Positions 3,725-57,641 of a stretch of DNA of 64,000 bases are shown piece after piece (within the stretch, counting starts at the first letter, position 1; every line of letters begins with the position of its first letter). Source of the DNA: Bacteroidota bacterium (GTDB lineage Bacteria; Bacteroidota; Bacteroidia; JABEUT01); the NCBI GenBank assembly GCA_013289165.1, contig JABDAL010000001.1, positions 9,603 through 73,602 of the forward strand. The letters are read 5' to 3'. Both the position numbers and the translations under genes were made by a program. The notes under the pieces are model-generated. The model was not told where the DNA came from, made no database searches, and saw only the letters and a list, made by a program, of their open reading frames with translations.

Positions 3725-3729
3725 GGGTG

Positions 3730-3754: not shown

Positions 3755-4135
3755 TCGTGACTGGAATATGTCACGCTCCCCATAGGGCATGACATATTTA
3801 TAATTCACAGGTAACCTGTCACTTTCATATTTTATGTCACGGTTTTCCGGTATCCGGTATCAATTCGATGTTCAAATTTTTCCCTCTTATAACTGAAATG
3901 GAGTGGGCTAAGTGTAAGTGAAATATATTGATAAACAGTCTTTTTAATATTCATTTTCCACTCTTCATTTACAGTACACTTGCCACACACTTGCATATCA
4001 AAAAGATATGTCACGGTGATCAAAAAAATACGTCATGGTGAAAATATACCTTAAGTACCTGGTTTTGTGGATATACTATCAATACGTCACATTGCCCATT
4101 TCGTAAAAAACCGTGACATAACGGTTTTTGAGTTC
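3755..4135 (-). repeat. copy 1 (inverted) of an intergenic element carrying multiple CCGTGACAT boxes
   Basis: The reverse complement of 4130..3981 aligns without gaps to 23121..23270, with 126/150 identities counted by hand. Boxes are at 4111-4119, 4084-4092, 4030-4038, 4008-4016, 3834-3842 and 3768-3776. Confidence 0.75.
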
Positions 4136-4212: not shown

Positions 4213-6426
4213 ATGGAACTTGTTGCAGTAGTAAACGAAGCCGAATTAGAAAAGAAGGAAATACTAAACCGTTACCGGGGACTTCTCCGCTCGTGCCGGT
4301 ACAAAGTAGATGACAGCGATAAAAAGCTTATCCGGAAGGCTTTTAATATTGCCCTGGAGGCCCACAAAAATGCCCGCCGCAAATCGGGAGAGCCTTACAT
4401 ATATCACCCTTTAGCCGTAGCCCGTATTGTAGCGGAGGAAATAGGACTTGGTTCTATTGCCATTGCTTGTGCATTGCTGCACGACACGGTTGAAGATACC
4501 GATATAAGCCTCAAGGATATTGAAGGAATGTTCGGCAAAAAGGTAGCCTCTATTATTGACGGGCTCACCAAAATAGCAGGGGTATTTGATGCATCCTCTT
4601 CTCTCCAGGCCGAAAATTTCCGTAAAATGCTGCTTACCCTTGCCGAAGACGTTAGGGTGATACTTATAAAGCTGGCAGATAGGTTACACAACATGCGTAC
4701 CCTCGATTCTATGGAAAGGACCAAGCAGCTGAAAATAGCCTCTGAAACACTTTATCTCTATGCTCCACTGGCCCACCGCTTGGGGTTAAATGCTATTAAA
4801 TCAGAGTTGGAAGACTTATCGTTGAAATATACAGAGCCCGTTTTGTTTGCTGACTTAGTTCAGAAGTTAAAAGATACCCAGGCAGAGCGTACACGTTATA
4901 TACACCGGTTTATTACGCCTATCAGGGAGGCCCTCCATGACCAGAAAATGAAGTTCCGCATTTTCGGTCGCCCTAAATCCGTTTATTCCATTTGGAACAA
5001 AATAAAAAACAAGGGGGTTCCCTTTGAGGAAGTGTATGACATATTCGCTATCCGCATCATCATTGATTCTCCCACGGAACAGGAAAAGGCTGATTGTTGG
5101 AGGGTATATTCATTAGTTACCGATTATTATTACCCAAACCCGGACCGCCTGCGAGATTGGATTTCTACGCCAAAAGCCAATGGGTATGAAGCATTGCATA
5201 CAACTGTTATGGGCCCCAACGGACAATGGGTGGAAGTTCAAATTAGAAGCGAGCGTATGAATGAAGTGGCTGAAAAAGGATATGCTGCCCATTGGAAATA
5301 TAAAGAGGGTGGACACGCAGAGGAAGATCCTTTGGAAGAGTGGCTTAAAAAAATACGACTCTCTCTCGAAAACCCTGACAGCAATGCCCTTGATTTTATC
5401 GACGATTTTAAATTAAATCTTTTTGCTGACGAAATATTTGTCTTTACACCCAAAGGCGAAATGCGGTCTCTCCCCGTAAACTCTACTGCGCTTGACTTTG
5501 CATTCGATATACACTCACAGGTGGGGGCGAAGTGCATCGGTGCAAAAGTCAATCATAAATTGGTTCCTTTAAGCCATAAATTAAACAGCGGCGACCAGGT
5601 AGAAATACTTACTTCTGTTAAACAGGCTCCCAAAGCCGATTGGATAAACTATGTGGTTACAGCCAAAGCCAAGTCGGCGATAAAGGTATTATTGAAAGAA
5701 GAAAGATATAAGCAGGCCGCGGAAGGTAAGGAGATATTGAAGCGTAAAATGAGCCACCTGAAAATTGAGTTCACAGAAAAAAATATTCATGATATAGCTA
5801 CTTTTTTAAAATTGGGAGATAGCCAGGAACTCTTTTACCGTGCTGCCCTTGAAAGGGTCACTGTGAAAGAGTTGAAAGAATATCTTGATTCCAAAGATGA
5901 AAAGCAAAACGGACAGCCGCAAAACAATGCACCCACATTAGAGGAACTTGTTTCGAAAGCAAGAGGAAAGCAGGATACCCTGATGATTGGTGACAATATG
6001 GATAAGCTGGAATATAAGCTCTCACCATGTTGCAACCCTATTCCGGGAGATGACGTGTTTGGGTTTATTACCATTCACGAAGGAATAAAAATTCATCGTG
6101 TAAGCTGCCCTAATGCCATAGCCCTCATGTCCAATCACGCATACCGTATTGTAAAAGCAAAATGGACAAGCCAGAAACTGATATCTTTCCTTGCCGGAAT
6201 AAAAATAACCGGGATTGATAAAATTGGGCTGGTAAATAAGCTTACCCAGATTATATCCAAAGAACTCAATGTAAACATGCGTTCCATTAGTTTCGATACG
6301 AATGACGGAACTTTCGAAGGTACCATTATGGTATTTGTTCACGATACGGCCCACCTTACCGACCTCATCAAGAAAATCCAAAAGGTGGACGGGGTAGTTA
6401 AGGTTACAAGGATAGATACAAATTAA
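4213..6426 (+). CDS. rsh: bifunctional (p)ppGpp synthetase/hydrolase, RelA/SpoT homolog
   Basis: 737 aa. HD hydrolase motif (ALLHDTVEDT), RelA_SpoT synthetase region (YSIWNKI...DIFAIRII), and TGS and ACT-like C-terminal regions. Confidence 0.9.
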   Translation: MELVAVVNEAELEKKEILNRYRGLLRSCRYKVDDSDKKLIRKAFNIALEAHKNARRKSGEPYIYHPLAVARIVAEEIGLGSIAIACALLHDTVEDTDISLKDIEGMFGKKVASIIDGLTKIAGVFDASSSLQAENFRKMLLTLAEDVRVILIKLADRLHNMRTLDSMERTKQLKIASETLYLYAPLAHRLGLNAIKSELEDLSLKYTEPVLFADLVQKLKDTQAERTRYIHRFITPIREALHDQKMKFRIFGRPKSVYSIWNKIKNKGVPFEEVYDIFAIRIIIDSPTEQEKADCWRVYSLVTDYYYPNPDRLRDWISTPKANGYEALHTTVMGPNGQWVEVQIRSERMNEVAEKGYAAHWKYKEGGHAEEDPLEEWLKKIRLSLENPDSNALDFIDDFKLNLFADEIFVFTPKGEMRSLPVNSTALDFAFDIHSQVGAKCIGAKVNHKLVPLSHKLNSGDQVEILTSVKQAPKADWINYVVTAKAKSAIKVLLKEERYKQAAEGKEILKRKMSHLKIEFTEKNIHDIATFLKLGDSQELFYRAALERVTVKELKEYLDSKDEKQNGQPQNNAPTLEELVSKARGKQDTLMIGDNMDKLEYKLSPCCNPIPGDDVFGFITIHEGIKIHRVSCPNAIALMSNHAYRIVKAKWTSQKLISFLAGIKITGIDKIGLVNKLTQIISKELNVNMRSISFDTNDGTFEGTIMVFVHDTAHLTDLIKKIQKVDGVVKVTRIDTN

Positions 6427-21672: not shown

Positions 21673-23046
21673 CTACAAGCCGTATTCAGAGAGCATATAT
21701 GTCATCATAGCTACTGATGCTGCACCCAGCTCCAGCTCTCTTTTATTCACTTTATCAAAGGTATCTGCTGCGGTGTGGTGGTAATCGAAATAACGTTGTG
21801 AGTCGGGTTCCAAACCGAGTTGAAAAGCTCCCAGGTCTTTTAATGGTGAAATGTCTGTACCGCCCTCACTTCCTAGGAAATCGTAAACGCCGTAAGGTAG
21901 AAACAGGTTTTTCCAAGCCAGTATTTTATTCTTTTTTTCTGTGGAGCCCCCTAATCCAAAACCACGGGGAGAGAAGCCTCCTGCATCCGATTCAATAGCT
22001 GCAATTTGGTTTTCGTGGTTCTTTTTGACCAATTCAGCATACTTCATGGCGCCCCGTGTTCCATTCTCTTCATTCATGAACATAACAAACCGTATGGTTC
22101 TTTTGGGTTTTATCCCTAATGCTTTAAAGGTTCTCATAACTTCCAGGGTCTGTACAATGCCCGCGCCATCATCATGCGCACCCTGTGCAAGGTCCCATGA
22201 ATCGAGGTGCCCGCCAATAGTGATATATTCGTCCGGGTGCTCGGTTCCCCTTATTTCTCCTACTACATTATATGACTTTTCGTCAGGCAGGGTCTGGCAA
22301 CTCATTTCGAAATGAAACCGTGTGCCCGGATCATTCTTTAACTGCTTGGAAAGTAATTCAGCGCCAATGGTGGATATAGCACAGCAAGGCACTTTGGGGA
22401 ATGAGTCCACATATTCCATAGCACCGGTGTGGGGGAAATCATCCAGGGCATTCGCCATAGAGCGTACTATGGCGCCTACCGCTCCATATTTGGCAGCCAT
22501 GCTTGGACCTGAATGGCGCTGGAACACAGCCTTGCCATAAGCAGCAAAGGTTTGTATTTCAGTTTCATCGAAGGGCTGATTAAAAAAAACTATTTTCCCT
22601 TCAACACCTAACTTGCCTATTTTTCGCAGTTCTTCAAAACTATGCACTTCGACCACCTTGGCGGTAATTCCTCCGGGTGGCGTAGCTACTGACCTGCCCA
22701 AGGCACAGATATTCACGGGGTAATCACCGGACAGGGTAGTTAATACAATAGCCTTTTCTTTTTCACCTCTCACCCAGTGCGGAACCATACATTCCTGCTT
22801 AAAGACCGTGTCGGCTCCAATACTTTCCATAAGTTGGTAGGTATATTCCACAGCGGCAGCAGCTTGTGGGGAACCTGTTAACCGGCCCCCTATTTTATTG
22901 CACAGGTAATCTAAATAGGAATAGCATTTGCCATGTAGCAATATCTCGTTGGCAATTGTGCGGAACATGATTGAATCTTTATCCTGGGCAAAAATGGAAC
23001 TTGTAAAAAGCAGGGGGAAAACGATTAAAAGGAGATGTTTTTTCAT
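21673..23046 (-). CDS. M28-family aminopeptidase (secreted)
   Basis: Signal peptide, a PA-like insert, and M28 metal-binding blocks (GGHLDSWD, GAHDDGAG, FMNEENG). Confidence 0.8.
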   Translation of the reverse strand: MKKHLLLIVFPLLFTSSIFAQDKDSIMFRTIANEILLHGKCYSYLDYLCNKIGGRLTGSPQAAAAVEYTYQLMESIGADTVFKQECMVPHWVRGEKEKAIVLTTLSGDYPVNICALGRSVATPPGGITAKVVEVHSFEELRKIGKLGVEGKIVFFNQPFDETEIQTFAAYGKAVFQRHSGPSMAAKYGAVGAIVRSMANALDDFPHTGAMEYVDSFPKVPCCAISTIGAELLSKQLKNDPGTRFHFEMSCQTLPDEKSYNVVGEIRGTEHPDEYITIGGHLDSWDLAQGAHDDGAGIVQTLEVMRTFKALGIKPKRTIRFVMFMNEENGTRGAMKYAELVKKNHENQIAAIESDAGGFSPRGFGLGGSTEKKNKILAWKNLFLPYGVYDFLGSEGGTDISPLKDLGAFQLGLEPDSQRYFDYHHTAADTFDKVNKRELELGAASVAMMTYMLSEYGL

Positions 23047-23068
23047 AAGTGTTTTTCAGTTATAGGTG

Positions 23069-23076
23069 CAAATGTA
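23069..23076 (-). promoter_or_regulatory. candidate -7 box TACATTTG for the M28 peptidase gene
   Basis: Reverse complement is TACATTTG, about 23 nt upstream of the ATG at 23046. Confidence 0.3.
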
Positions 23077-23119
23077 AAATTACTTTATTGATAAAAATGA
23101 GCTCGTTTTTTTTCCCATT

Positions 23120-23445
23120 CCAAAAACGGTTATGTCACGGTTTTTCACGAAACGGGCAACGTGACATAAAGATTATATACTCATAAAACCAAGTACTTAA
23201 GGCAGTTTTACACCATGACATATTTTTTTGACCACCGTGACATATCTTTTTGCGATGCAAGTATATAGCAATTATATTGCAAATAATATACGCTTAACAG
23301 CCTTATTACCAATATTTTGCCACGCTGTGACCATAGGGACGAAAAGCGCCTTTAGGAGTATGAGGCTGAAATAGCACCGTGACATAAAATAAGAAACTAA
23401 TAGACTAATAGGACGTTATGGGCATCGAGTACCGTGACATATCCT
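23120..23445 (+). repeat. copy 2 of the CCGTGACAT-box intergenic element
   Basis: See copy 1. Boxes are at 23132-23140 (inverted), 23159-23167, 23213-23221, 23235-23243, 23324-23334 (degenerate), 23377-23385 and 23432-23440. Confidence 0.75.
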
Positions 23446-23492
23446 CACCGCAATCATTTTTATAAAATGAAGCCCGCAGGCAGTGGAAACTT

Positions 23493-25190
<1,698 letters not shown>

Positions 25191-26149: not shown

Positions 26150-26179
26150 GGTAGTGGGTCAGTTTGAAATTTAACATTT
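26150..26179 (+). repeat. left terminal inverted repeat of the IS1-family element
   Basis: 30/30 match to the reverse complement of 28005-28034. Begins GGTAGTG, similar to the GGTGATG start of classical IS1 ends. Confidence 0.85.
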
Positions 26180-26201
26180 ACAAAAATAGTTTTTTCATGC
26201 A

Positions 26202-26209
26202 TATATTTG
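26202..26209 (+). promoter_or_regulatory. candidate inward-facing -7 box TATATTTG inside the IS left end
   Basis: Exact TAnnTTTG. Its G is 5 nt before the ATG at 26214. Confidence 0.3.
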
Positions 26210-26213
26210 CAGC

Positions 26214-26357
26214 ATGATAAAACCGAAGCGACCACGGGACCCGATGCAGCTAGCAAAATATATTGCAGATATAGCAACCGGGGCTATTGTAGAAAAAAAA
26301 CCTACAAAAAAACGGAAAGTAAAAAAGACGGCTAAAAAGCGTAAATCCAAGAAGTAA
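26214..26357 (+). CDS. small basic ORF, 47 aa (MIKPKRPRDPMQLAKYIADIATGAIVEKKPTKKRKVKKTAKKRKSKK)
   Basis: Hand-translated; below the ORF-track cutoff. Lys/Arg-rich tail. The N-terminal RPRDP.QLAK.I.DIATG pattern looks like small hypothetical proteins I have seen elsewhere, but I cannot verify this. Confidence 0.35.
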   Translation: MIKPKRPRDPMQLAKYIADIATGAIVEKKPTKKRKVKKTAKKRKSKK

Positions 26358-26592
26358 ACGAGTAATTTTAATATATTTGTCTCGTTAAAACATATTAGCG
26401 TCCTTATCCTGCTTCCGAATCTATCACATTTCAAAAGCGGACACACAGACGGTAAGAGTATGCTCACGTTAGGCGTGGAGCGCTCTTGTTCTGTGTAACG
26501 CTTGTGATAGAGCGTGGAAGCAAATAAGTTTAGCTCCACGCTGAATTTAATAAACCACTCATGCGGGGCTTGTGAGTATAAAACAAGTTCGT

Positions 26593-26859
26593 ATGAAACC
26601 CAAAACAATGAAAATGTTAGGACTGCTTTTAATTGTTATCGGAATCCTTATCTGTATTCCGGTAACTATTGACAAAAATGAGAAATTCGTTGCGTATGCT
26701 GTAGATGGTACACCCTTTACAGAATTTGTGCAAAATCAAAACGACTATAGTGGATATATAATACCGGTAGTACTTGCTATTATAGGTTTTATCCTATTTT
26801 TAGTAGGCTATATGACTTCTTATACCCAAAAGGGAACAGAAGAAAATAAAGCCAAGTAA
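26593..26859 (+). CDS. small two-helix membrane protein, 88 aa (IS passenger)
   Basis: ORF with two clear hydrophobic helices (LGLLLIVIGILICIPV and IIPVVLAIIGFILFLVGY). Start set at the first ATG. Confidence 0.45.
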   Translation: MKPKTMKMLGLLLIVIGILICIPVTIDKNEKFVAYAVDGTPFTEFVQNQNDYSGYIIPVVLAIIGFILFLVGYMTSYTQKGTEENKAK

Positions 26860-27116
26860 TGAACAGGCTGTTAATAAGTTCTTAAATAATGAAATTATTA
26901 AAACTGTATTTTTGTACTTAGATAGAGCGGCACTCTATTTGATGTGAAAATCTTACGAGGGTTAAAACCCAAACGAAGAGCCCAAAAACAAGTGCCGCTT
27001 GTTTGAGGGCTTTAGTTTTTATATAAAGCCATCAACATCTATAATAGAGTAAATATGTCAGGTCTGGCATATAAAGCGTGCGCGTAAAATTTATTAGCTG
27101 AAGTGAGGAAATAGTT

Positions 27117-27188
27117 GCCTCCGTAGTTTAATGAAAGAATACCAGTTTGTCTAACGCGGAGATTCAGGTTCAAGTCCTGACGGAGGCA
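27117..27188 (+). pseudogene. degenerate tRNA-Asp(GTC)-like sequence
   Basis: 72 nt with canonical tRNA geometry. Perfect acceptor stem GCCTCCG/CGGAGGC, D arm GTTT-AATGAAA-GAAT, and perfect T arm TCAGG-TTCAAGT-CCTGA. The anticodon arm CCAGT-TTGTCTA-ACGCG forms only 3 of 5 pairs and has a pyrimidine at position 37. Confidence 0.5.
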
Positions 27189-27221
27189 CTACTTAATTAG
27201 CAATGCAAATATACTCAAAGT

Positions 27222-28013
27222 ATGAATATATTATCATTAGAAAAGAGGGGACAAATAATAACCCTCCTCGTAGAAGGTAATAGTATAAGGGCAACTGCGC
27301 GAATTACTGGCTGCTCAAAAAATACCATTGCAAAGTTATTGGAAGATATAGGAATAGCCTGCCTTAAGTTTCACGATGATATGGTACGGAATGTACGGGC
27401 AAACAGGGTCCAATGTGATGAGATATGGTCCTTTGTCTATGCCAAAAGAAAAAATGTACCGTATGATAAAATAGGTGAAGCCGGTGATGTTTGGACCTGG
27501 ACCGCTATAGATGCGGATAGTAAATTGATTATTTCATGGTTTGTTGGAGGGAGAGATATTAAAAGTGCTAACTATTTTATGCAAGATGTTGCCAGTAGGC
27601 TAACCAATAGGGTGCAATTAACAACTGATGGCTTAAAAGCCTATTTAGATGCTATAGAAGAGGCTTTTCCCAAAGGAGTAGACTTCGCTCAATTAGATAA
27701 ACAATACGCTGGAAGTAGATACGTGGGGGCCATAAAAACACCATTAATAGGCTGCCCGGATAATAAGCACATAACTACCAGCCATGTAGAGCGCCAAAAT
27801 CTCACTATGAGAATGCACATGAGACGTTTTACCAGGTTTACTAATGCCTTTTCAAAGAAAATAGAAAATCATTGCTATGCACTTGCCTTATATTTTGTGT
27901 ACTATAATTTCTGCAAGATTCATACAACTTTGCGCGTTACGCCTGCAATGGAAGCTGGATTAACTAACGATATTATGGAAATTACCGATATTGTGAAACT
28001 TATAAAATGTTAA
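27222..28013 (+). CDS. IS1-family DDE transposase (single-ORF type)
   Basis: N-terminal HTH (SIRATARITGCSKNTIAKLL). DDE region with CDEIWSFV...WTWTAIDADSKLI...LTTDGLKAY, and the IS1-type tail HVERQNLTMRMHMRRFTRFTNAFSKK. The stop codon lies inside the right TIR. Confidence 0.8.
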   Translation: MNILSLEKRGQIITLLVEGNSIRATARITGCSKNTIAKLLEDIGIACLKFHDDMVRNVRANRVQCDEIWSFVYAKRKNVPYDKIGEAGDVWTWTAIDADSKLIISWFVGGRDIKSANYFMQDVASRLTNRVQLTTDGLKAYLDAIEEAFPKGVDFAQLDKQYAGSRYVGAIKTPLIGCPDNKHITTSHVERQNLTMRMHMRRFTRFTNAFSKKIENHCYALALYFVYYNFCKIHTTLRVTPAMEAGLTNDIMEITDIVKLIKC

Positions 28014-28034
28014 ATTTCAAACTGACCCACTACC
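28005..28034 (-). repeat. right terminal inverted repeat of the IS1-family element
   Basis: Reverse complement is identical to 26150-26179. Confidence 0.85.
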
Positions 28035-36439: not shown

Positions 36440-36576
36440 ACATTACTCCGGCATACGGATTTGCTTTCTTACAAAGTTAAGAAAAGGGGCAGTCCAAAAT
36501 GAAGCAGTTGATAAAAAGTATGAAACCTGCTCTTTGTGAAGGGATAAAATATCCCGTATAATTCATCAAAATGTAG

Positions 36577-36584
36577 TATCTTTG
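36577..36584 (+). promoter_or_regulatory. candidate -7 box TATCTTTG for tatA
   Basis: Exact TAnnTTTG 23 nt upstream of the ATG at 36607. Confidence 0.3.
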
Positions 36585-36606
36585 GGTATTATTAAATTTA
36601 AAAGCC

Positions 36607-36813
36607 ATGTTACTTTTTTTAGAAGCAATAAAACCTTCCGAGATTATTTTAATCCTTGTGATTGTATTAATATTCTTCGGTGGTAGAAAAATTCCTGAAC
36701 TTATGCGCGGTCTTGGGCAGGGTATCAAGGAGTTTAAAGATGCCTCGAAAGGAGGAAATGAAAAGGATAATAGCGGAAAGGAAGTTGATGATACGAAAGA
36801 CCAGTTGAAATAA
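36607..36813 (+). CDS. tatA: twin-arginine translocase TatA/E-family protein
   Basis: 68 aa. One TM helix followed by [21 protein letters not shown]. Confidence 0.88.
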
Positions 36814-36942
36814 ACCGGGCCTTGCTATTATTTGGACAAGTAAAGGGGAGAGGATAATATTATTCGATTCCTTCCAAATAAATTTAACTTTTCTACGTTT
36901 TGTTAGTCAAAGGTTATGGATAATAGTATAATCTGAGAAATT

Positions 36943-39714
36943 GTGAAAAAAGTACTGGGGGTCAGCATTTTTCTTTTATTGTCAGGTTTTCTATATGCAA
37001 CACACCAGGTAGGGGGGCTTATTATCTTTAAATGGTTAGGTGGATATACTTACCAGTTTACAATAATAGATTATACCAATACATGGCTAACCAGTGCCGA
37101 CAGGGATACCATACGTATACATTATGGTGATGGCAGTGGCGCCTATAGCACGGAATTATTGAGCAGGCAAAATGGACTTAGTGGCGAGGCCTTATTTGGT
37201 AATGGTGACCCAACTCCCAATGGTGTACCGATTTGCAATTACGATTTTGATGCTACACCACCTGTAGTTCTTAGTGGTGCCCGGAAAATTAATATATACG
37301 AGGGGACCGCTCATAATTTTCCCGGCCCGGGGACTTATCGTGTTTGGATGGATGACCCAGACAGGATGGCGAACATTAATAATATCAACGGCTCTGTGAA
37401 TATTGATTATTATATGTATACTACCTTGGTAATTCAGGATATTGCTATTGCCCAGCCTGTAAATTCCCCGGTAATTACCAATCCTCCCGTTTGTCAATAT
37501 GGTTGTGTAGGCCAATGTTATAATTATAACCCCGGAGCCTATATTCCTATCCCACCGTCAGTTGGAGATGACAGTATTTCTTATTCTTTGGGTAAGAGCC
37601 TTACTACAGGTGGTGAAATAGCCGGTGAGTATACTCTTCCCGCTTCAACCACCATTGACCCTAAAACAGGTAGCTTATCCTGGTGCGCAACTGTCAAAGG
37701 CATCTGGAACTTTGTGATTTTAATGACCACTTATACAAGAACCTATGTTGATTCGGTAAAGGAATTAGTTCCCCTTGATACGGTAGAACTGGAGTTGGAA
37801 GTAGATATAAATACAGATTGTTATCCTCCTATTATTAATAGTGAAGATACGTGTGTGGAAGCAGGTGGTACAGCAATCATTAAATACACGGCAAAAAATA
37901 ATCCTGCTGCGAATCCTCCTCAATTACTTTATGTGAGTTATGCCGGAGAGCCTTTCTCACAGACGCCTCCTGCTACGTTAACGGATGACAACCCTCCACC
38001 ACCGACATATACGTTGCACCCGGTATTTAACTGGGTTACTAATTGTGGAGAAGTACGTGATAACCCGTATTCTGCGATATTGGAGGCAACCGAGAAAGAA
38101 CTTTCCAATAGCGATTTATCAGATTCTGTTTATTATAGCAGTTATGGCACTTCCAACATTACTGTGGTTGGCCCTGCGCCTCCGCACCTGATGGCAACTA
38201 TACAGGGTACTACAGTTTGTTTACACTGGGGCCCAAGCCCATGTCCGCAAGCTACAGGGTATAATATATACCGGGCGGTGGGGTGTGTGAACTTCGAGCG
38301 AGATATATGTACTACAGGAGTTCCATCAGGCAGTGGTTTTAAAAAGATTGCAACCAATATGGGGCTGGATGATACCACTTATTGCGATGATAATGGCGGT
38401 AACGGACTATCTCCCGGGGTTCATTATAGCTATGTGGTAGATGCTATTTACCCATTTCCGGATGTATCCCAAAGCCTTGCTTCCAATGATACCTGTGTGG
38501 AAATTAAGTTTAATGTACCTCTTATTACCAATGTAAGTGTTACTGAAACAGACCCCAAACAGGGTGAAATTTTTATCCGCTGGATGCGGCCATTTGCCGA
38601 TAGCGCTGATTTAGATACCAATAAGCTTGCACGTCCATACAAATATGTGTTAATGAGGGCAAGCGGAATGAATGGGCAGAAGTTTTTACGCATAGATTCT
38701 GTAACTTCCAACACTTTTAGAACTACTAATTTAGATACGACCTTTAAAGATACCCGGTTAGATACCCAGGATAGCAGTTATAATTACAAGGTAGATTTTT
38801 ATGGTAATACCCTGTTTATAGGCCCTTCAGCTACGGCTTCGTCAATATATCTTCGATTACGGAGAGGGGACAGTTTGATGATACTTAACTGGCAATCATC
38901 CGTGCCTTGGACAGATAGCCTCTATTACATATACAGGAAAGATCCGGGTGGAAATGGATATAACAAAATAGATTCGGCATTGAAAAAAACGTACACTGAT
39001 ACTAAGCTTACAAATGGCTACCAATACTGCTATTATGTCGAATCCGTTAGTCATTACCTGGGTGCCAGAATAGCAACTCTTTATGATTCATCAGAAACCA
39101 TATGCGGAACCCCAATTGATACTATTCCTCCCTGTTCTCCTCCACTGACAGTGAATGTAAAATGTGCTCTTTATGAAGATTCTCTCGTATGGAGCAACCC
39201 AACCAGGTTATGTCATAAGGCAACTAAAGTAGTGAGTTACCAGGTGTTTTATTCACCTTATGAAAATGGCGACATGTATAGTATCGCCACTATTAATAAT
39301 CCTGAAGATACCGTATATGTAAATGCAAACCTAAGCTCTGTAGCAGGTTGCTATGCTGTGCTTGCTTTTGATTCGGCAGGAAGGGTGAGTCCATTCAATA
39401 CTATTTGTGTAGATAACTGTCCTCTTTATTCATTGCCTAATGTATTTACCCCCAATGGAGACGGGAAGAATGACTTCTTTACTCCTTTGGAACCATACCG
39501 GTACGTAAAAAGCATAGATATGAGTGTTTATAACCGTTGGGGGCAACTTGTTTTTCATACCACTGACCCTGCTATTAACTGGAATGGCATGGTAGATAAT
39601 ACGGGCGGAACTTGCCCTGATGGGGTATATTTTTATGTGTGCGTAGTGAATGAAATACGCCTTGCAGGTATTGTCCCCATTACCCTGAAGGGCTTCATAG
39701 AAATAATAAGATAG
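36943..39714 (+). CDS. large cell-surface protein with gliding-motility-associated C-terminal domain (T9SS type B sorting domain)
   Basis: GTG start with signal peptide. C-terminus LPNVFTPNGDGKNDFFTPL...VYNRWGQLVFHTTDPAINWNG...GVYFYV. Confidence 0.8.
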   Translation: MKKVLGVSIFLLLSGFLYATHQVGGLIIFKWLGGYTYQFTIIDYTNTWLTSADRDTIRIHYGDGSGAYSTELLSRQNGLSGEALFGNGDPTPNGVPICNYDFDATPPVVLSGARKINIYEGTAHNFPGPGTYRVWMDDPDRMANINNINGSVNIDYYMYTTLVIQDIAIAQPVNSPVITNPPVCQYGCVGQCYNYNPGAYIPIPPSVGDDSISYSLGKSLTTGGEIAGEYTLPASTTIDPKTGSLSWCATVKGIWNFVILMTTYTRTYVDSVKELVPLDTVELELEVDINTDCYPPIINSEDTCVEAGGTAIIKYTAKNNPAANPPQLLYVSYAGEPFSQTPPATLTDDNPPPPTYTLHPVFNWVTNCGEVRDNPYSAILEATEKELSNSDLSDSVYYSSYGTSNITVVGPAPPHLMATIQGTTVCLHWGPSPCPQATGYNIYRAVGCVNFERDICTTGVPSGSGFKKIATNMGLDDTTYCDDNGGNGLSPGVHYSYVVDAIYPFPDVSQSLASNDTCVEIKFNVPLITNVSVTETDPKQGEIFIRWMRPFADSADLDTNKLARPYKYVLMRASGMNGQKFLRIDSVTSNTFRTTNLDTTFKDTRLDTQDSSYNYKVDFYGNTLFIGPSATASSIYLRLRRGDSLMILNWQSSVPWTDSLYYIYRKDPGGNGYNKIDSALKKTYTDTKLTNGYQYCYYVESVSHYLGARIATLYDSSETICGTPIDTIPPCSPPLTVNVKCALYEDSLVWSNPTRLCHKATKVVSYQVFYSPYENGDMYSIATINNPEDTVYVNANLSSVAGCYAVLAFDSAGRVSPFNTICVDNCPLYSLPNVFTPNGDGKNDFFTPLEPYRYVKSIDMSVYNRWGQLVFHTTDPAINWNGMVDNTGGTCPDGVYFYVCVVNEIRLAGIVPITLKGFIEIIR

Positions 39715-55115: not shown

Positions 55116-55236
55116 TGCCGTAAGCATGCTTTGAATGTGAATAACAGTTCACGCTAAAAAGCAACTCTCTTTTTCAAGCAATAGGTGAATTAGAATTCCT
55201 TAATATGTAATTAACATTAAGGTAAAATCCCTTGTC

Positions 55237-55244
55237 TAATCTTG
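55237..55244 (+). promoter_or_regulatory. candidate -7 box TAATCTTG (one mismatch), duplicated at 56445-56452
   Basis: The TAATCTTGCACC block is conserved upstream of both tandem paralogs. Confidence 0.3.
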
Positions 55245-55276
55245 CACCACAAATCAAAAATAAAACCGACTTTAAC

Positions 55277-56296
55277 ATGAAAACAAAAATCAACTACTTA
55301 ATCGTATTATTTGTATTGGCAATTGCTGCCCCTAAAGCAAATGCTCAAACCCTTATTCAATACTGGGATTTTAATGGCACTCTCCCTGCCGCAGGCGGCG
55401 GAGGCGACAGCCTGGGTAACAGTAATGCAACCTATGGTGCGCTGACAGCTAACCAGGTGGCTAAAGGTTTAACGGCTGGACATATCATTTATTCCCGCCC
55501 TACCAAACACTATAACTCTGGCACAAGAGACAGTATTTTGGATAATGGCAGCGGAGGAGCAGGGGTATATGATTTCAGTAACAGCAACGATACCGGGGGT
55601 ACTGCAGCCGGAAACCTATTTGTACGCGCCCGTAATCCTGCTGATAGTTGTGTAATGTATGTATATATACCAACCACTGGTTATAAGAATATCCAATTTG
55701 AATTTGCATTGTCTGCTTCCAGTACCAAAGGTGCTAACTATGGAATATTTTCATACAGTACCAATAATGGAACAAGTTGGAATAACTTGACTAAGGCAAT
55801 GGATACTTTTAATATCAGTGGGGTGTATCGTCCCGATACCTTGCAGTTGCTAAATCCTATCTCATCAGCCAGTGCCTGGTATCCTGTTCATATAAATTTC
55901 AGCAGCGATCCGACTGTAAACAGCAATGCTAATGTGATTGTAAGGATGATGCTTGCCGGGCCTAATACACACCAGCAGGCAAGTGGAAATGCTCGCTTTG
56001 ATAATTTTGCTGTATTGGGAACTATTGTAGCCGGCGTTAATGAAATATCAGCCGAGGCAGCCGGATATAGTGTATATCCCAACCCTGTGGGCGATTTTGT
56101 AAATGTAGTTTCGAGCCAGTATACAGGTGCAAAAGTTATTACCCTGTATAATGTTGTTGGGCAGGAAGTGAGCCAGACACAAACCAGCGACTTGCAAACC
56201 GCCATCAGTACTTCTTCCTTAAATTCAGGCATGTATTTTGTGGAAATACAAGAGGTAGCAACCGGCAATAAATATACGCAAAAAATTGTAAAATAG
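55277..56296 (+). CDS. T9SS C-terminal-target (type A sorting domain) secreted protein, paralog 1
   Basis: Signal peptide MKTKINYLIVLFVLAIAAPKANAQ. C-terminal ~80 aa are Por_Secre_tail-like (YPNPVGDFVNVVS...GMYFVEIQ...QKIVK). Confidence 0.8.
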   Translation: MKTKINYLIVLFVLAIAAPKANAQTLIQYWDFNGTLPAAGGGGDSLGNSNATYGALTANQVAKGLTAGHIIYSRPTKHYNSGTRDSILDNGSGGAGVYDFSNSNDTGGTAAGNLFVRARNPADSCVMYVYIPTTGYKNIQFEFALSASSTKGANYGIFSYSTNNGTSWNNLTKAMDTFNISGVYRPDTLQLLNPISSASAWYPVHINFSSDPTVNSNANVIVRMMLAGPNTHQQASGNARFDNFAVLGTIVAGVNEISAEAAGYSVYPNPVGDFVNVVSSQYTGAKVITLYNVVGQEVSQTQTSDLQTAISTSSLNSGMYFVEIQEVATGNKYTQKIVK

Positions 56297-56323
56297 TAAT
56301 AGGTTTTGTTTAGTAATAGGATA

Positions 56324-56354
56324 AGTCCGTTCCCGAAAGGGGCGGACTTTTTTC
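56324..56354 (+). terminator. rho-independent terminator
   Basis: AGTCCG..CCC-gaaa-GGG..CGGACT followed by TTTTTTC. Confidence 0.7.
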
Positions 56355-56444
56355 TTTACTATTTTGAAGTGAACTTTTAATCCAATATTAACTCCTTCGG
56401 GGATTTGTTAATCTTGAATTAATAATGAGTTAATATGGCTTGGG

Positions 56445-56452
56445 TAATCTTG
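56445..56452 (+). promoter_or_regulatory. candidate -7 box TAATCTTG (one mismatch) for paralog 2
   Basis: Same conserved TAATCTTGCACC block as at 55237. Confidence 0.3.
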
Positions 56453-56495
56453 CACCGCCAAACTCAAATAAAAACAAAAATAATACCTTTTTACC

Positions 56496-57497
56496 ATGAA
56501 AACAAAAATTAACTACTTGATTATCTTAATCGCATTAGCTTTCTTTACTCCTAAAGCAAATGCACAAACCCTTATCCAGTTTTGGGATTTTAATGCTACC
56601 CTCCCTTCCGGCGGTGCAGGAGGAGATAGCTTAGGTAGCAGTAACCCAACGTATGCATTACCGGCTAACCAGTATGCAACAGGAGCAGCAGGTAGCATTA
56701 CTTATTCTCACCCAACCGGAGGCGGTATTTTGGACAATGGTGCCGGACCAGGTTATGCATATTTCTATGATTACAGCAACAGTAATGATACTGGTGGTGC
56801 TGTAGCCGGAAACTTGTTTGTACGTGCCCGTAATCCTGCACAGAATGCATCAATGTATATTCAAATTCCTACTAACGGTTATAAGAATATTACGTTGGAC
56901 TTTGCACTTTCTGCTTCCAGTTCAAAAGGAGCTAATTATGGTATATTTTCTTACAGTACCAGTGGTATGGCAGGACCATGGAAGAATTTAACGAAAGCGA
57001 TGGATACTTTTAATATCAGTGGTGTATACCGTCCTGATACCTTGCAATTGCTAAATCCTATCACAGTAGGAAGTAACTGGTATCCTGTTCAAATTAATTT
57101 CAGCAATGATGCAAGTGTAAATTCTAACAAGTCCAATTTTATTGTGAAAATAGAATTTGAAGGACCTAATACGACACTTACAAGTGGCAATGCACGGTTC
57201 GATAACTTTGCAGCAAAAGGAACTGTTATAGCCGATGTAAATGAAATATCAGCTGAGGCTGCCGGATACAGTGTGTATCCTAACCCGGTGGGTGATTTTG
57301 TAAACGTGGTTTCCAGCCAGTATATAGGTGCAAAAGTTATTACCTTGTATAATGTAGTTGGACAAGAAGTGAGCCAAACACAAACAAGCGCTTTACAAAC
57401 AGCCATCAATACTTCTTCCCTGAATACGGGAGTGTATTTTGTGGAAATAAAAGAAGCAGGTACCGGAAATACCTACACGCAAAAAATTGTAAAATAG
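56496..57497 (+). CDS. T9SS C-terminal-target (type A sorting domain) secreted protein, paralog 2
   Basis: Collinear with paralog 1. Shares the signal peptide, GNLFVRARNPA, KGANYGIFSYST and NLTKAMDTFNISGVYRPDTLQLLNPI blocks, and a near-identical C-terminal sorting domain. Confidence 0.8.
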   Translation: MKTKINYLIILIALAFFTPKANAQTLIQFWDFNATLPSGGAGGDSLGSSNPTYALPANQYATGAAGSITYSHPTGGGILDNGAGPGYAYFYDYSNSNDTGGAVAGNLFVRARNPAQNASMYIQIPTNGYKNITLDFALSASSSKGANYGIFSYSTSGMAGPWKNLTKAMDTFNISGVYRPDTLQLLNPITVGSNWYPVQINFSNDASVNSNKSNFIVKIEFEGPNTTLTSGNARFDNFAAKGTVIADVNEISAEAAGYSVYPNPVGDFVNVVSSQYIGAKVITLYNVVGQEVSQTQTSALQTAINTSSLNTGVYFVEIKEAGTGNTYTQKIVK

Positions 57498-57522
57498 TAA
57501 TAGGTTTCGTTTAGTAATAGGA

Positions 57523-57556
57523 TAAGTCCGCTTCTGAAAAGAGGCGGACTTTTTTC
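57523..57556 (+). terminator. rho-independent terminator
   Basis: AAGTCCGC-ttctgaaaaga-GGCGGACTT followed by TTTTTC. Confidence 0.7.
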
Positions 57557-57641
57557 TTTGTATAATTTACAAGATAAATTTCTTCTGTCCAAAAATGTAA
57601 ATTGTCGTATAAAAAAGAGGGAGGATTAAATTAAATTTTCC

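Follow-up and report, generated by a model that had tools for sequence, protein, structure and literature searches.

The 64,000-nt stretch analyzed here (the window, whose numbering is used throughout) is part of contig JABDAL010000001.1 from a Bacteroidota bacterium. It contains two copies of a short noncoding element built from an array of boxes of 9 to 11 bp. The array is a real, nonrandom feature, and the element represents a new family of dispersed noncoding repeat with an unusual, phased multibox layout. We read it as a nonautonomous mobile element, with the boxes as predicted sites for a recombinase or transposase that is encoded elsewhere, and we assign this reading a probability of about 0.5. 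The window itself is ordinary chromosome of a Bacteroidota-type organism, and its G+C content is 39.7%. It encodes cargo proteins of the type IX secretion system (T9SS)/CHU_C kind, mreBCD-PBP2-rodA, arg genes, pyrG, and relA/spoT.

Copy 2 (W2) is located at 23121..23445 on the plus strand. Its neighbors are two minus-strand genes: an M28 peptidase gene, which starts at 23046, and pyrG, which stops at 23493. Copy 1 (W1) is located at 3764..4130 on the minus strand. The two neighboring genes, relA/spoT (start at 4213, plus strand) and hemE (start at 3727, minus strand), diverge from it. Alignments and nhmmer identified both copies as full-length elements, and W2 was also delimited by an inverted repeat. 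W1 and W2 are inverted copies of one element. Positions 3967-4130 and 23121-23284 are complementary (83% over 164 nt), and the distal boxes of the two copies can also be aligned beyond this inverted repeat.

An earlier note on this DNA had listed the boxes of both copies, and a direct check of the sequence located every one of them. In W2, box 1 is ATGTCACGG (23132-23140) and is inverted. The direct boxes that follow are box 2 (ACGTGACAT at 23159), box 3 (CCATGACAT at 23213), and boxes 4, 5, and 6 (CCGTGACAT at 23235, 23377, and 23432). In W1, boxes 1 to 6 are on the minus strand at 4111-4119, 4092, 4038, 4016, 3842, and 3776. W1 has variant forms of box 2 (ATGTGACGT), box 3 (CCATGACGT), and box 6 (GCGTGACAT). 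The first offsets measured 19, 54, and 22 in W1 and W2 alike, and the distal pair is 55 nt apart in W2 versus 66 nt in W1, both as first described. A further "degenerate" box, GCTGTGACCAT at 23324, had no counterpart in the other copies when these were aligned and was dropped. The core 9-mer CGTGACATA occurs 9 times in the window, versus 0.18 ± 0.41 expected. None of 100 dinucleotide-preserving shuffles reached this count. All 9 sites are inside W1 or W2, so the 9-mer is confined to these two regions, as had been noticed on first reading.

We recovered three more loci from a metagenome scan with the 21-mer around box 1. All three were in metagenome Ga0206994. L005 is a full-length copy, and its distal boxes form the perfect palindromes TTATGTCACGatt...aatCGTGACATAA and ATATGTCACGGtat...ataCCGTGACATAT. 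L007 contains boxes 1 to 4 only (~135 bp), and L006 contains boxes 1 and 2 only (~75 bp). The full form is 325 to 370 bp. The copy number is thus at least five. The protein encoded beside the L005 copy is 100% identical in Logan run SRR8422341, which also has contigs identical to the window. The five copies therefore come from one sample and, most likely, from one uncultured Bacteroidota genome. Three short-read contigs of this run break off ~30 nt (k-1) into the element, counted from its left end, one each in W2, W1, and L005. Contig L003 ends at 23150, 30 nt inside the left end of W2, and contig L004 ends at 4098 in W1. The 30-mer at the end of the W1 contig is found unchanged in L007. The breaks are therefore repeat induced, and those at W2 and L005 indicate additional copies beyond the five. 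Species-representative genomes were also scanned for box 1 together with box 4. The two matches, in an Actinomycetes and an Aminicenantes metagenome-assembled genome, both lacked the element and are most likely due to chance.

The copies reached their present places by insertion. Their neighbors are relA/hemE, M28/pyrG, a T9SS plug gene, gdh, and a Ham1-family gene, which are unrelated housekeeping contexts. All five copies are intergenic; they occur on either strand and next to 5' as well as 3' ends of genes. Orthologous hemE-relA spacers were reached through RelA orthologues of ~90% identity in several relatives. These spacers are empty and contain no boxes; their length is 86 bp in L014-16 and 123 bp in L081/82. 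Downstream of the T9SS plug gene, the spacer that is filled in L005 measures 12 bp in relatives L086-88. No copy of the element was found in ~99 kb of nonredundant DNA from the relatives. With two orthologous sites empty in relatives, the copies are insertions in this lineage.

The boxes have the consensus CCGTGACATA-A/T. From left to right, the element contains (C/T)A(A/G)AAAC, a palindromic unit (P1), a linker, boxes 3 and 4, GCAA repeats, a variable segment, box 5, and box 6. The leftmost (C/T)A(A/G)AAAC is common to all five copies and may be either a target or part of the element. P1 is also present in 5 of 5 copies and has an outer TGTC...GACA span of 34 bp. In W2 it is located at 23130..23169 (plus strand) and contains inverted box 1 and direct box 2 (23159-23167). 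In W1 it is located at 4084..4119 (minus strand) and contains box 1 (4111-4119) and box 2, ATGTGACGT (4092-4084). Both changes in W1 box 2 preserve G-T pairing with box 1. The linker between boxes 2 and 3 is conserved at 45 bp, which puts the starts of these boxes 54 bp apart. Boxes 3 and 4 belong to a pair of direct 22-bp units with the sequence CC(A/G)TGACATAT(T/C)TTTTTG. In W2 the pair is located at 23213..23255 (plus strand; CCATGACAT and CCGTGACAT, 22 bp apart), and ATAT(T/C)TTTTTG directly follows each box. In W1 it is located at 4008..4038 (minus strand), with CCATGACGT at 4038-4030 and CCGTGACAT at 4016-4008. Box 4 is identical in the 4 copies that carry it.

Three tandem 11-bp GCAA repeats follow box 4. 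In W2 these are GCAAGTATATA, GCAATTATATT, and GCAAATAATAT (23257..23289, plus strand). In W1 they are GCAAGTGTGTG, GCAAGTGTACT, and GTAAATGAAGA (3962..3994, minus strand). The variable middle segment of W2 (23290..23376, plus strand) aligns poorly between copies and differs in length. Box 5 is of the type ...CATAA and box 6 of the type ...CATAT. W2 box 5, CCGTGACAT (23377..23385, plus strand), is followed by AAAATA. W2 box 6, CCGTGACAT (23432..23440, plus strand), is followed by ATCC and has a fold z score of -0.5. W1 box 5, CCGTGACAT (3834..3842, minus strand), is also followed by AAAATA. Boxes 5 and 6 of L005 form the right arms of palindromic units of 27 and 26 bp, respectively. The inverted partners of both boxes have decayed in W2, and W1 retains the partner of box 6 only. 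That pair forms unit P3 of W1 (3768..3795, minus strand), which contains ATGTCATGC (3795-3787) and box 6, GCGTGACAT (3776-3768). W1 P3 has an outer span of 26 bp and carries one compensatory change relative to P3 of L005.

The boxes are selectively conserved in the additional copies. When the left modules of four copies were aligned, 32 of 36 columns within boxes but 55 of 110 within linkers were invariant (Fisher P = 2.6e-5). The sequence between the distal boxes no longer aligns, yet the boxes themselves are intact. Comparison of spacing across copies showed that the first offsets are constant and that later ones vary in helical phase. The start-to-start distances of 54 and 22 are found in every copy that has the direct boxes concerned. 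The distance from box 4 to box 5 is 142, 152, or 174, and that from box 5 to box 6 is 55, 66, or 66. Multiples of a 10.9-bp period account for the direct-box distances (in-phase score, 0.96). From copy to copy, spacers are longer or shorter by 10, 11, 22, or 32 bp, which are whole helical turns. A jitter test, in which each distance was moved by up to ±5 bp and periods of 10 to 11.5 bp were allowed, gave P = 5e-5 for all seven distances and P = 0.002 for the five variable distances; the test was devised post hoc and covers few independent events. The palindromic units are 34, 27, and 26 bp here, and they are 33 and 25 bp in a related element in L011 that has another box. Phase is kept despite the spacer changes, and this points to a constraint on duplex DNA, with the sites on one face, as would be expected if a protein binds them cooperatively.

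The same pattern could arise if the host now uses the element. A mobile ancestor would have spread it, and a host protein (a regulator or a nucleoid-structuring or partition-type protein) would now keep the boxes. Such a protein would coat one face of ~300 bp, as in multioperator or centromere-like arrays. This is the main rival to the mobile-element reading, although we consider it somewhat unlikely. It would account for boxes that remain intact amid sequence diverged past alignment, for length changes between copies that keep helical phase, for the age of the copies, and for the second class of 11-bp tandem repeats. However, gene context, orientation, and promoter distance are not common to the copies, and the short copies L006 and L007 lack most boxes. 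The orthologous sites in relatives are empty, so the element is not needed there. There is at present no candidate binding protein. The earlier note had offered iteron-like or multioperator binding as an alternative. This stays alive in the form of a host-used platform, whereas an iteron origin beside a rep gene does not fit the housekeeping neighbors.

The two ends of the element differ in constancy. The left end is the same in all five copies. At the right end, similarity stops 4 to 7 nt after box 6 in W1, W2, and L005 (~4 to 5 nt past it in W2). In the short copies it stops after box 4 (L007) or box 2 (L006). Similarity between copies begins at (C/T)A(A/G)AAAC and stops at ...GACATAT(C/T)C. 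The left borders read ...TTCC|AAAAAC and ...ACTC|AAAAAC, and the right borders read ...ATATCC| and ...ATATTCC|. A 10- to 11-bp inverted match, TTATGTCACGG / CCGTGACATAA-T, is found 11 to 12 nt from the left border and 4 to 7 nt from the right. The outermost boxes had been likened to short terminal inverted repeats. Box 1, in inverted orientation, does mark the left side of every variant, and a direct box marks the right side, but these boxes are subterminal and asymmetric.

Under the mobile-element reading, one sequence-specific protein encoded elsewhere would recognize the boxes on double-stranded DNA. The likeliest binder would be a recombinase or transposase, which may assemble as a multisubunit complex on one helix face. 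Inverted box 1 would be the constant left end, and any direct box could be used as the right end. If box 1 can pair with any direct box, nested variants ending after box 2, 4, or 6 would follow. The GCAA repeats after box 4 may bind a second domain of the protein or an accessory protein. Together with the extra in-phase boxes, they may build a larger synaptic complex.

Several points weigh against this reading. The analysis is based on only five copies. All of the extra copies were retrieved via an exact 21-mer at box 1, and the constancy of the left end is partly imposed by that search. The inverted boxes are placed asymmetrically inside the ends (~11 to 12 nt on the left and 4 to 7 nt on the right). 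No target-site duplication or att-core repeat was found, and none of the five copies has a consistent flanking direct repeat. The left modules are 73 to 87% identical to each other, so the visible copies are old and give no sign of recent movement. Box conservation and the keeping of phase could equally reflect a host function at each locus. Within the 64-kb window there is no autonomous partner, cognate protein, TnsB/MuA-type DDE transposase, or serine TnpA. The earlier note had suggested looking for a larger autonomous element with the same boxes; beyond the window, exact-pattern box scans of genome and viral collections matched only sequences without the element. The idea of a nonautonomous element thus holds as regards a noncoding, multicopy, insertion-polymorphic unit with an array like that of protein-binding sites. 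Its proposed Tn7- or Mu-like architecture fails on termini, duplication, and site clusters.

The likeness to Tn7 and Mu is limited to several transposase sites per end with irregular spacing. The element has no TG/CA termini, no 5-bp duplication, and no two opposed clusters of ~20-bp sites, and Tn7/Mu-like ends were rejected. Its direct boxes start 19 nt after inverted box 1 and run through the whole element, and orientations alternate in L005.

The nearest bacterial analogue may be the ends of IS607-family insertion sequences (IS1535, IS607, and ISC1926). These ends have no terminal inverted repeats and give no target duplication, and they carry an imperfect inverted repeat at unequal distances from the ends (PMC6188088). 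Their phased ~9-bp motifs nucleate cooperative binding of many serine-transposase dimers (PMC6188088). The element shares the lack of terminal inverted repeats and duplication and the inverted repeat at unequal distances, and its phased 9-bp boxes resemble the IS607 motifs in part. In IS1535, however, the motifs are contiguous, ~10 bp apart, and within 20 to 60 bp of one end, whereas the boxes here extend across ~300 bp at multiples of 10.9 bp and in both orientations. IS607 has GG termini and a GG target, and the element has no consistent GG at its borders. It is also not associated with tnpA or tnpB of the IS607 kind. The element may work in a similar way and is at most a candidate member of the family. 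It might also represent an undescribed class of bacterial nonautonomous element, or a domesticated platform derived from one, in which a recombinase acts on one-face boxes over ~300 bp. Movement would then proceed without target duplication, perhaps via an IS607-like serine transposase, and alternative internal boxes would yield the subelements. We regard this version as unlikely.

The palindromes suggest another kind of element. It could be of the repetitive extragenic palindrome (REP)/bacterial interspersed mosaic element (BIME) type or a palindrome-associated transposable element (PATE) derived from IS200/IS605, with single-stranded DNA hairpins recognized by an HUH Y1 transposase. For a PATE-like element, the transposase would use the (C/T)A(A/G)AAAC left of box 1 as its target or cleavage motif. 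Single-strand folding gave -12 kcal/mol (z = -7.2) for P2 and -15.6 kcal/mol (z = -8.6) for P3 of L005, and P3 of W1 also folds (-10.3 kcal/mol, z = -4.4). One compensatory change was found (CGG/CCG in L005 to TGC/GCG in W1), and several further changes are compatible with G-T pairing. The lack of terminal inverted repeats and of a target duplication would also fit, as would a left flank conserved in 5 of 5 copies and a constant left end combined with a variable right end. Like REP and BIME, the element has extragenic palindromic units of ~26 to 34 bp in alternating orientation with conserved linkers. Subterminal hairpins at both ends on the same strand, expected of a PATE, are found in L005 and W1 but not in every copy.

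Other features do not fit hairpins. The distal inverted arms have decayed in W2 and W1 while the direct arms are perfect, which is the opposite of selection on a hairpin. The decayed units include the right hairpin of W2, and the last box of L007 is direct and has no partner. Boxes 3 and 4 are direct repeats without partners, and helical phasing of direct boxes would be meaningless for hairpins. A C/G difference in the small hairpin at box 1 is uncompensated. In REP sequences, the tag at the palindrome end is GTAG or CGTC (PMC3733652). Neither of these forms is present here; the palindromes are headed by TTATGTCACG and ATATGTCACG. A Y1 transposase was not seen either. REP sequences have tens to hundreds of copies and are mobilized by RAYT transposases; here five copies were seen, with more indicated by the contig breaks, and a RAYT gene is not known. 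A hairpin element is unlikely, and less likely than a host-used platform.

It is quite improbable that the copies are small RNA genes or cis-acting RNA elements whose transcription runs from left to right and whose palindromes form structural or terminator hairpins. The left module is conserved beyond the boxes, there are hairpins on the 3' side, and some substitutions are G-U compatible on the sense strand. The Bacteroidota -7 promoter motif is TAnnTTTG. Near matches to it overlap boxes 3 and 4, and L007 has a perfect TAGCTTTG, but the motif is not conserved between copies. Rfam 15 covariance models gave no match at the gathering score and only chance-level matches at E values up to 5. RNAalifold found almost no covariation on either strand (terms of -0.06 and -0.56), and wobble-compatible changes are found on both strands. 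The distal hairpins have decayed in W2, and a 10.9-bp phase is a property of duplex DNA. A structured RNA was set aside given the lack of an Rfam match, of covariation, and of a conserved -7 motif. An RNA or single-strand role is possible but is less well supported than protein binding to the duplex. A small protein was also rejected, since no reading frame is shared between copies.

The hemE-relA spacer that holds W1 is a hot spot of DNA gain and loss. In relatives, a Fic-family gene lies between hemE and relA (L084 4001-5353, L085 602-2032, L013 8542-9795, and L011 4325-4519). L084 and L085 carry it intact. The nanopore contig L013 has a frameshifted version and L010-12 a truncated one, and the lineage of the window, L014, and L081 lack the gene. 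Other insertions occur in the same region. In L011, a GC-rich MITE (miniature inverted-repeat transposable element)-like insertion at ~4540-4710, bounded by terminal inverted repeats of 17 bp (TTCATTCATTAGCCCCG / CGGGGCTAATGAATGAA), directly follows the truncated Fic open reading frame (ORF) and may have interrupted Fic. In L084, the spacer contains a MITE-like insertion of ~80 bp (~3757-3839) with 14-bp terminal repeats (GCACACAGATGACA / TGTCATCTGTGTGC).

We searched 115 kb of relatives' loci with a left-module profile (nhmmer). The best matches were just upstream of Fic, in L010-12 (E = 0.006) and L013 (E = 0.15), where extra DNA precedes the gene. The shared part is ~40 bp and contains TTTTTG followed by three tandem 11-bp GCAA-type repeats. 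In L011, an array of the same layout precedes the GCAA stretch and is built on another box (ATATGTCAGT / ACTGACATAT); its first and second inverted pairs span 33 and 25 bp. The boxes could in principle be operators left behind after Fic was lost from this spacer, and both the position of Fic in relatives and the position of the best matches suit that idea. However, in L084 and L085, the simplest hemE-Fic-relA loci, a short plain promoter spacer without boxes or GCAA motif precedes Fic. tblastn found no Fic remains anywhere in the window, including beside W1, and the other four copies are at unrelated loci. The box-free L084 and L085 largely refute a regulatory remnant of Fic, and we consider it very improbable. 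Since the simplest Fic loci lack boxes, Fic is outside the element, and the L011 and L013 arrays are themselves insertions. Related box-array elements with different boxes may thus have entered the same spacer. The link to a wider family is tentative, because it draws on marginal E values and layout only. Upstream of Fic, GCAAT is repeated every ~11 to 12 bp in L011 (3740-3880), and L013 (7990-8300) contains TTGCACAC / GTGTGCAA / TTACACA boxes in both orientations. These two arrays may be other subfamilies of box-array elements.

Among small repeats, the element can be compared with classical MITEs, Correia/NEMIS, pneumococcal BOX, and enterobacterial RU/ERIC. Like these, it is small, noncoding, multicopy, and intergenic, with filled and empty sites between relatives. 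It also shares modular shorter variants, hairpins, and broken short-read assemblies with them. Its inverted match is subterminal and not at the very ends as in MITEs, and a target duplication is lacking. Its phased boxes and 11-bp repeats are atypical, and few copies have been seen so far. If the element is of an undescribed class, its widely spaced boxes would be closer to the subterminal repeat arrays of eukaryotic hAT elements than to the terminal inverted repeats of bacteria.

The res sites of serine resolvases are compact (~86 to 120 bp) and occur once per replicon beside the resolvase gene. The dimer-sized TGTC...GACA units of the element (34, 27, and 26 bp), with their variable inner spacing and with an inverted unit followed by a direct pair, recall res sites (gamma-delta/Tn3 and Sin site I plus II), a likeness that we take as a lead only. 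The units of the element, in contrast, extend over >300 bp at scattered chromosomal sites that lack an adjacent recombinase gene.

Plasmid or phage origin was rejected; blastn gave no match, and viral pattern scans gave unrelated arrays only. The phage contigs L055 and L076 contain arrays on the same GTGACAT core, which are analogous and not homologous to the element. In these contigs, tandem iterons of 10 to 11 bp (L055 3051-4133 and L076 2030-3199) lie inside O-like replication-initiator genes (PHROGs). L054 (8400-8540) and L051 contain an intergenic TTGCAACGTGACATAAATGCAAC-type box array beside small ORFs.

The only transposase in the window (27222-28013) belongs to an insertion sequence (IS)-like element at 26150-28034. 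This element has perfect 30-bp terminal inverted repeats, GGTAGTGGGTCAGTTTGAAATTTAACATTT. It was rejected as a partner, as these repeats are unrelated to the boxes. It contains an 88-amino-acid ORF without a Pfam match (26593-26859) and encodes a 263-amino-acid protein with helix-turn-helix and DDE transposase domains (27222-28013, IS1/IS240-like). It also contains a tRNA-like gene (27117-27188, Rfam tRNA, 46 bits), which is an unusual passenger for an IS.

Gene order departs from that of relatives L013 and L014 exactly at W2 (21673-23493). In these relatives, T9SS cargo genes precede the M28 peptidase gene, which has the orientation of relA. The M28-Sua5-PLD block of the window has the opposite orientation to relA and borders W2 and pyrG. 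The L005 copy is likewise at a site where the downstream neighbor differs from that in relatives (L086). An inversion between W1 and W2 was rejected from the gene orders. The hemE-relA adjacency is ancestral, and the 19-kb segment between the two copies was therefore not simply flipped.

Two other regions of the window were recorded. A tandem duplication of ~1.2 kb (55195-57560; 73 to 83% identical) has given two secreted Por_Secre_tail paralogues (55277-56296 and 56496-57497); both have an upstream region and a terminator-like tail of their own. A 908-bp region without a long ORF (36440-37347) lies upstream of a gene for a 788-amino-acid CHU_C protein and has no Rfam match at the gathering score.

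The element is a new family inside a familiar category. Its architecture, and length changes that keep helical phase, are unusual for small bacterial repeats. If the mobile-element reading is correct, this would be a compact bacterial noncoding mobile element built from dispersed, helically phased boxes, whereas most known bacterial elements of this size use terminal inverted repeats. It would also offer a route to a recombinase and a DNA recognition code in uncultured Bacteroidota. The element breaks short-read assemblies at a predictable point. Its present-day mobility is putative. It adjoins the promoters of relA/spoT, hemE, and other housekeeping genes, and a bound complex could affect their expression.

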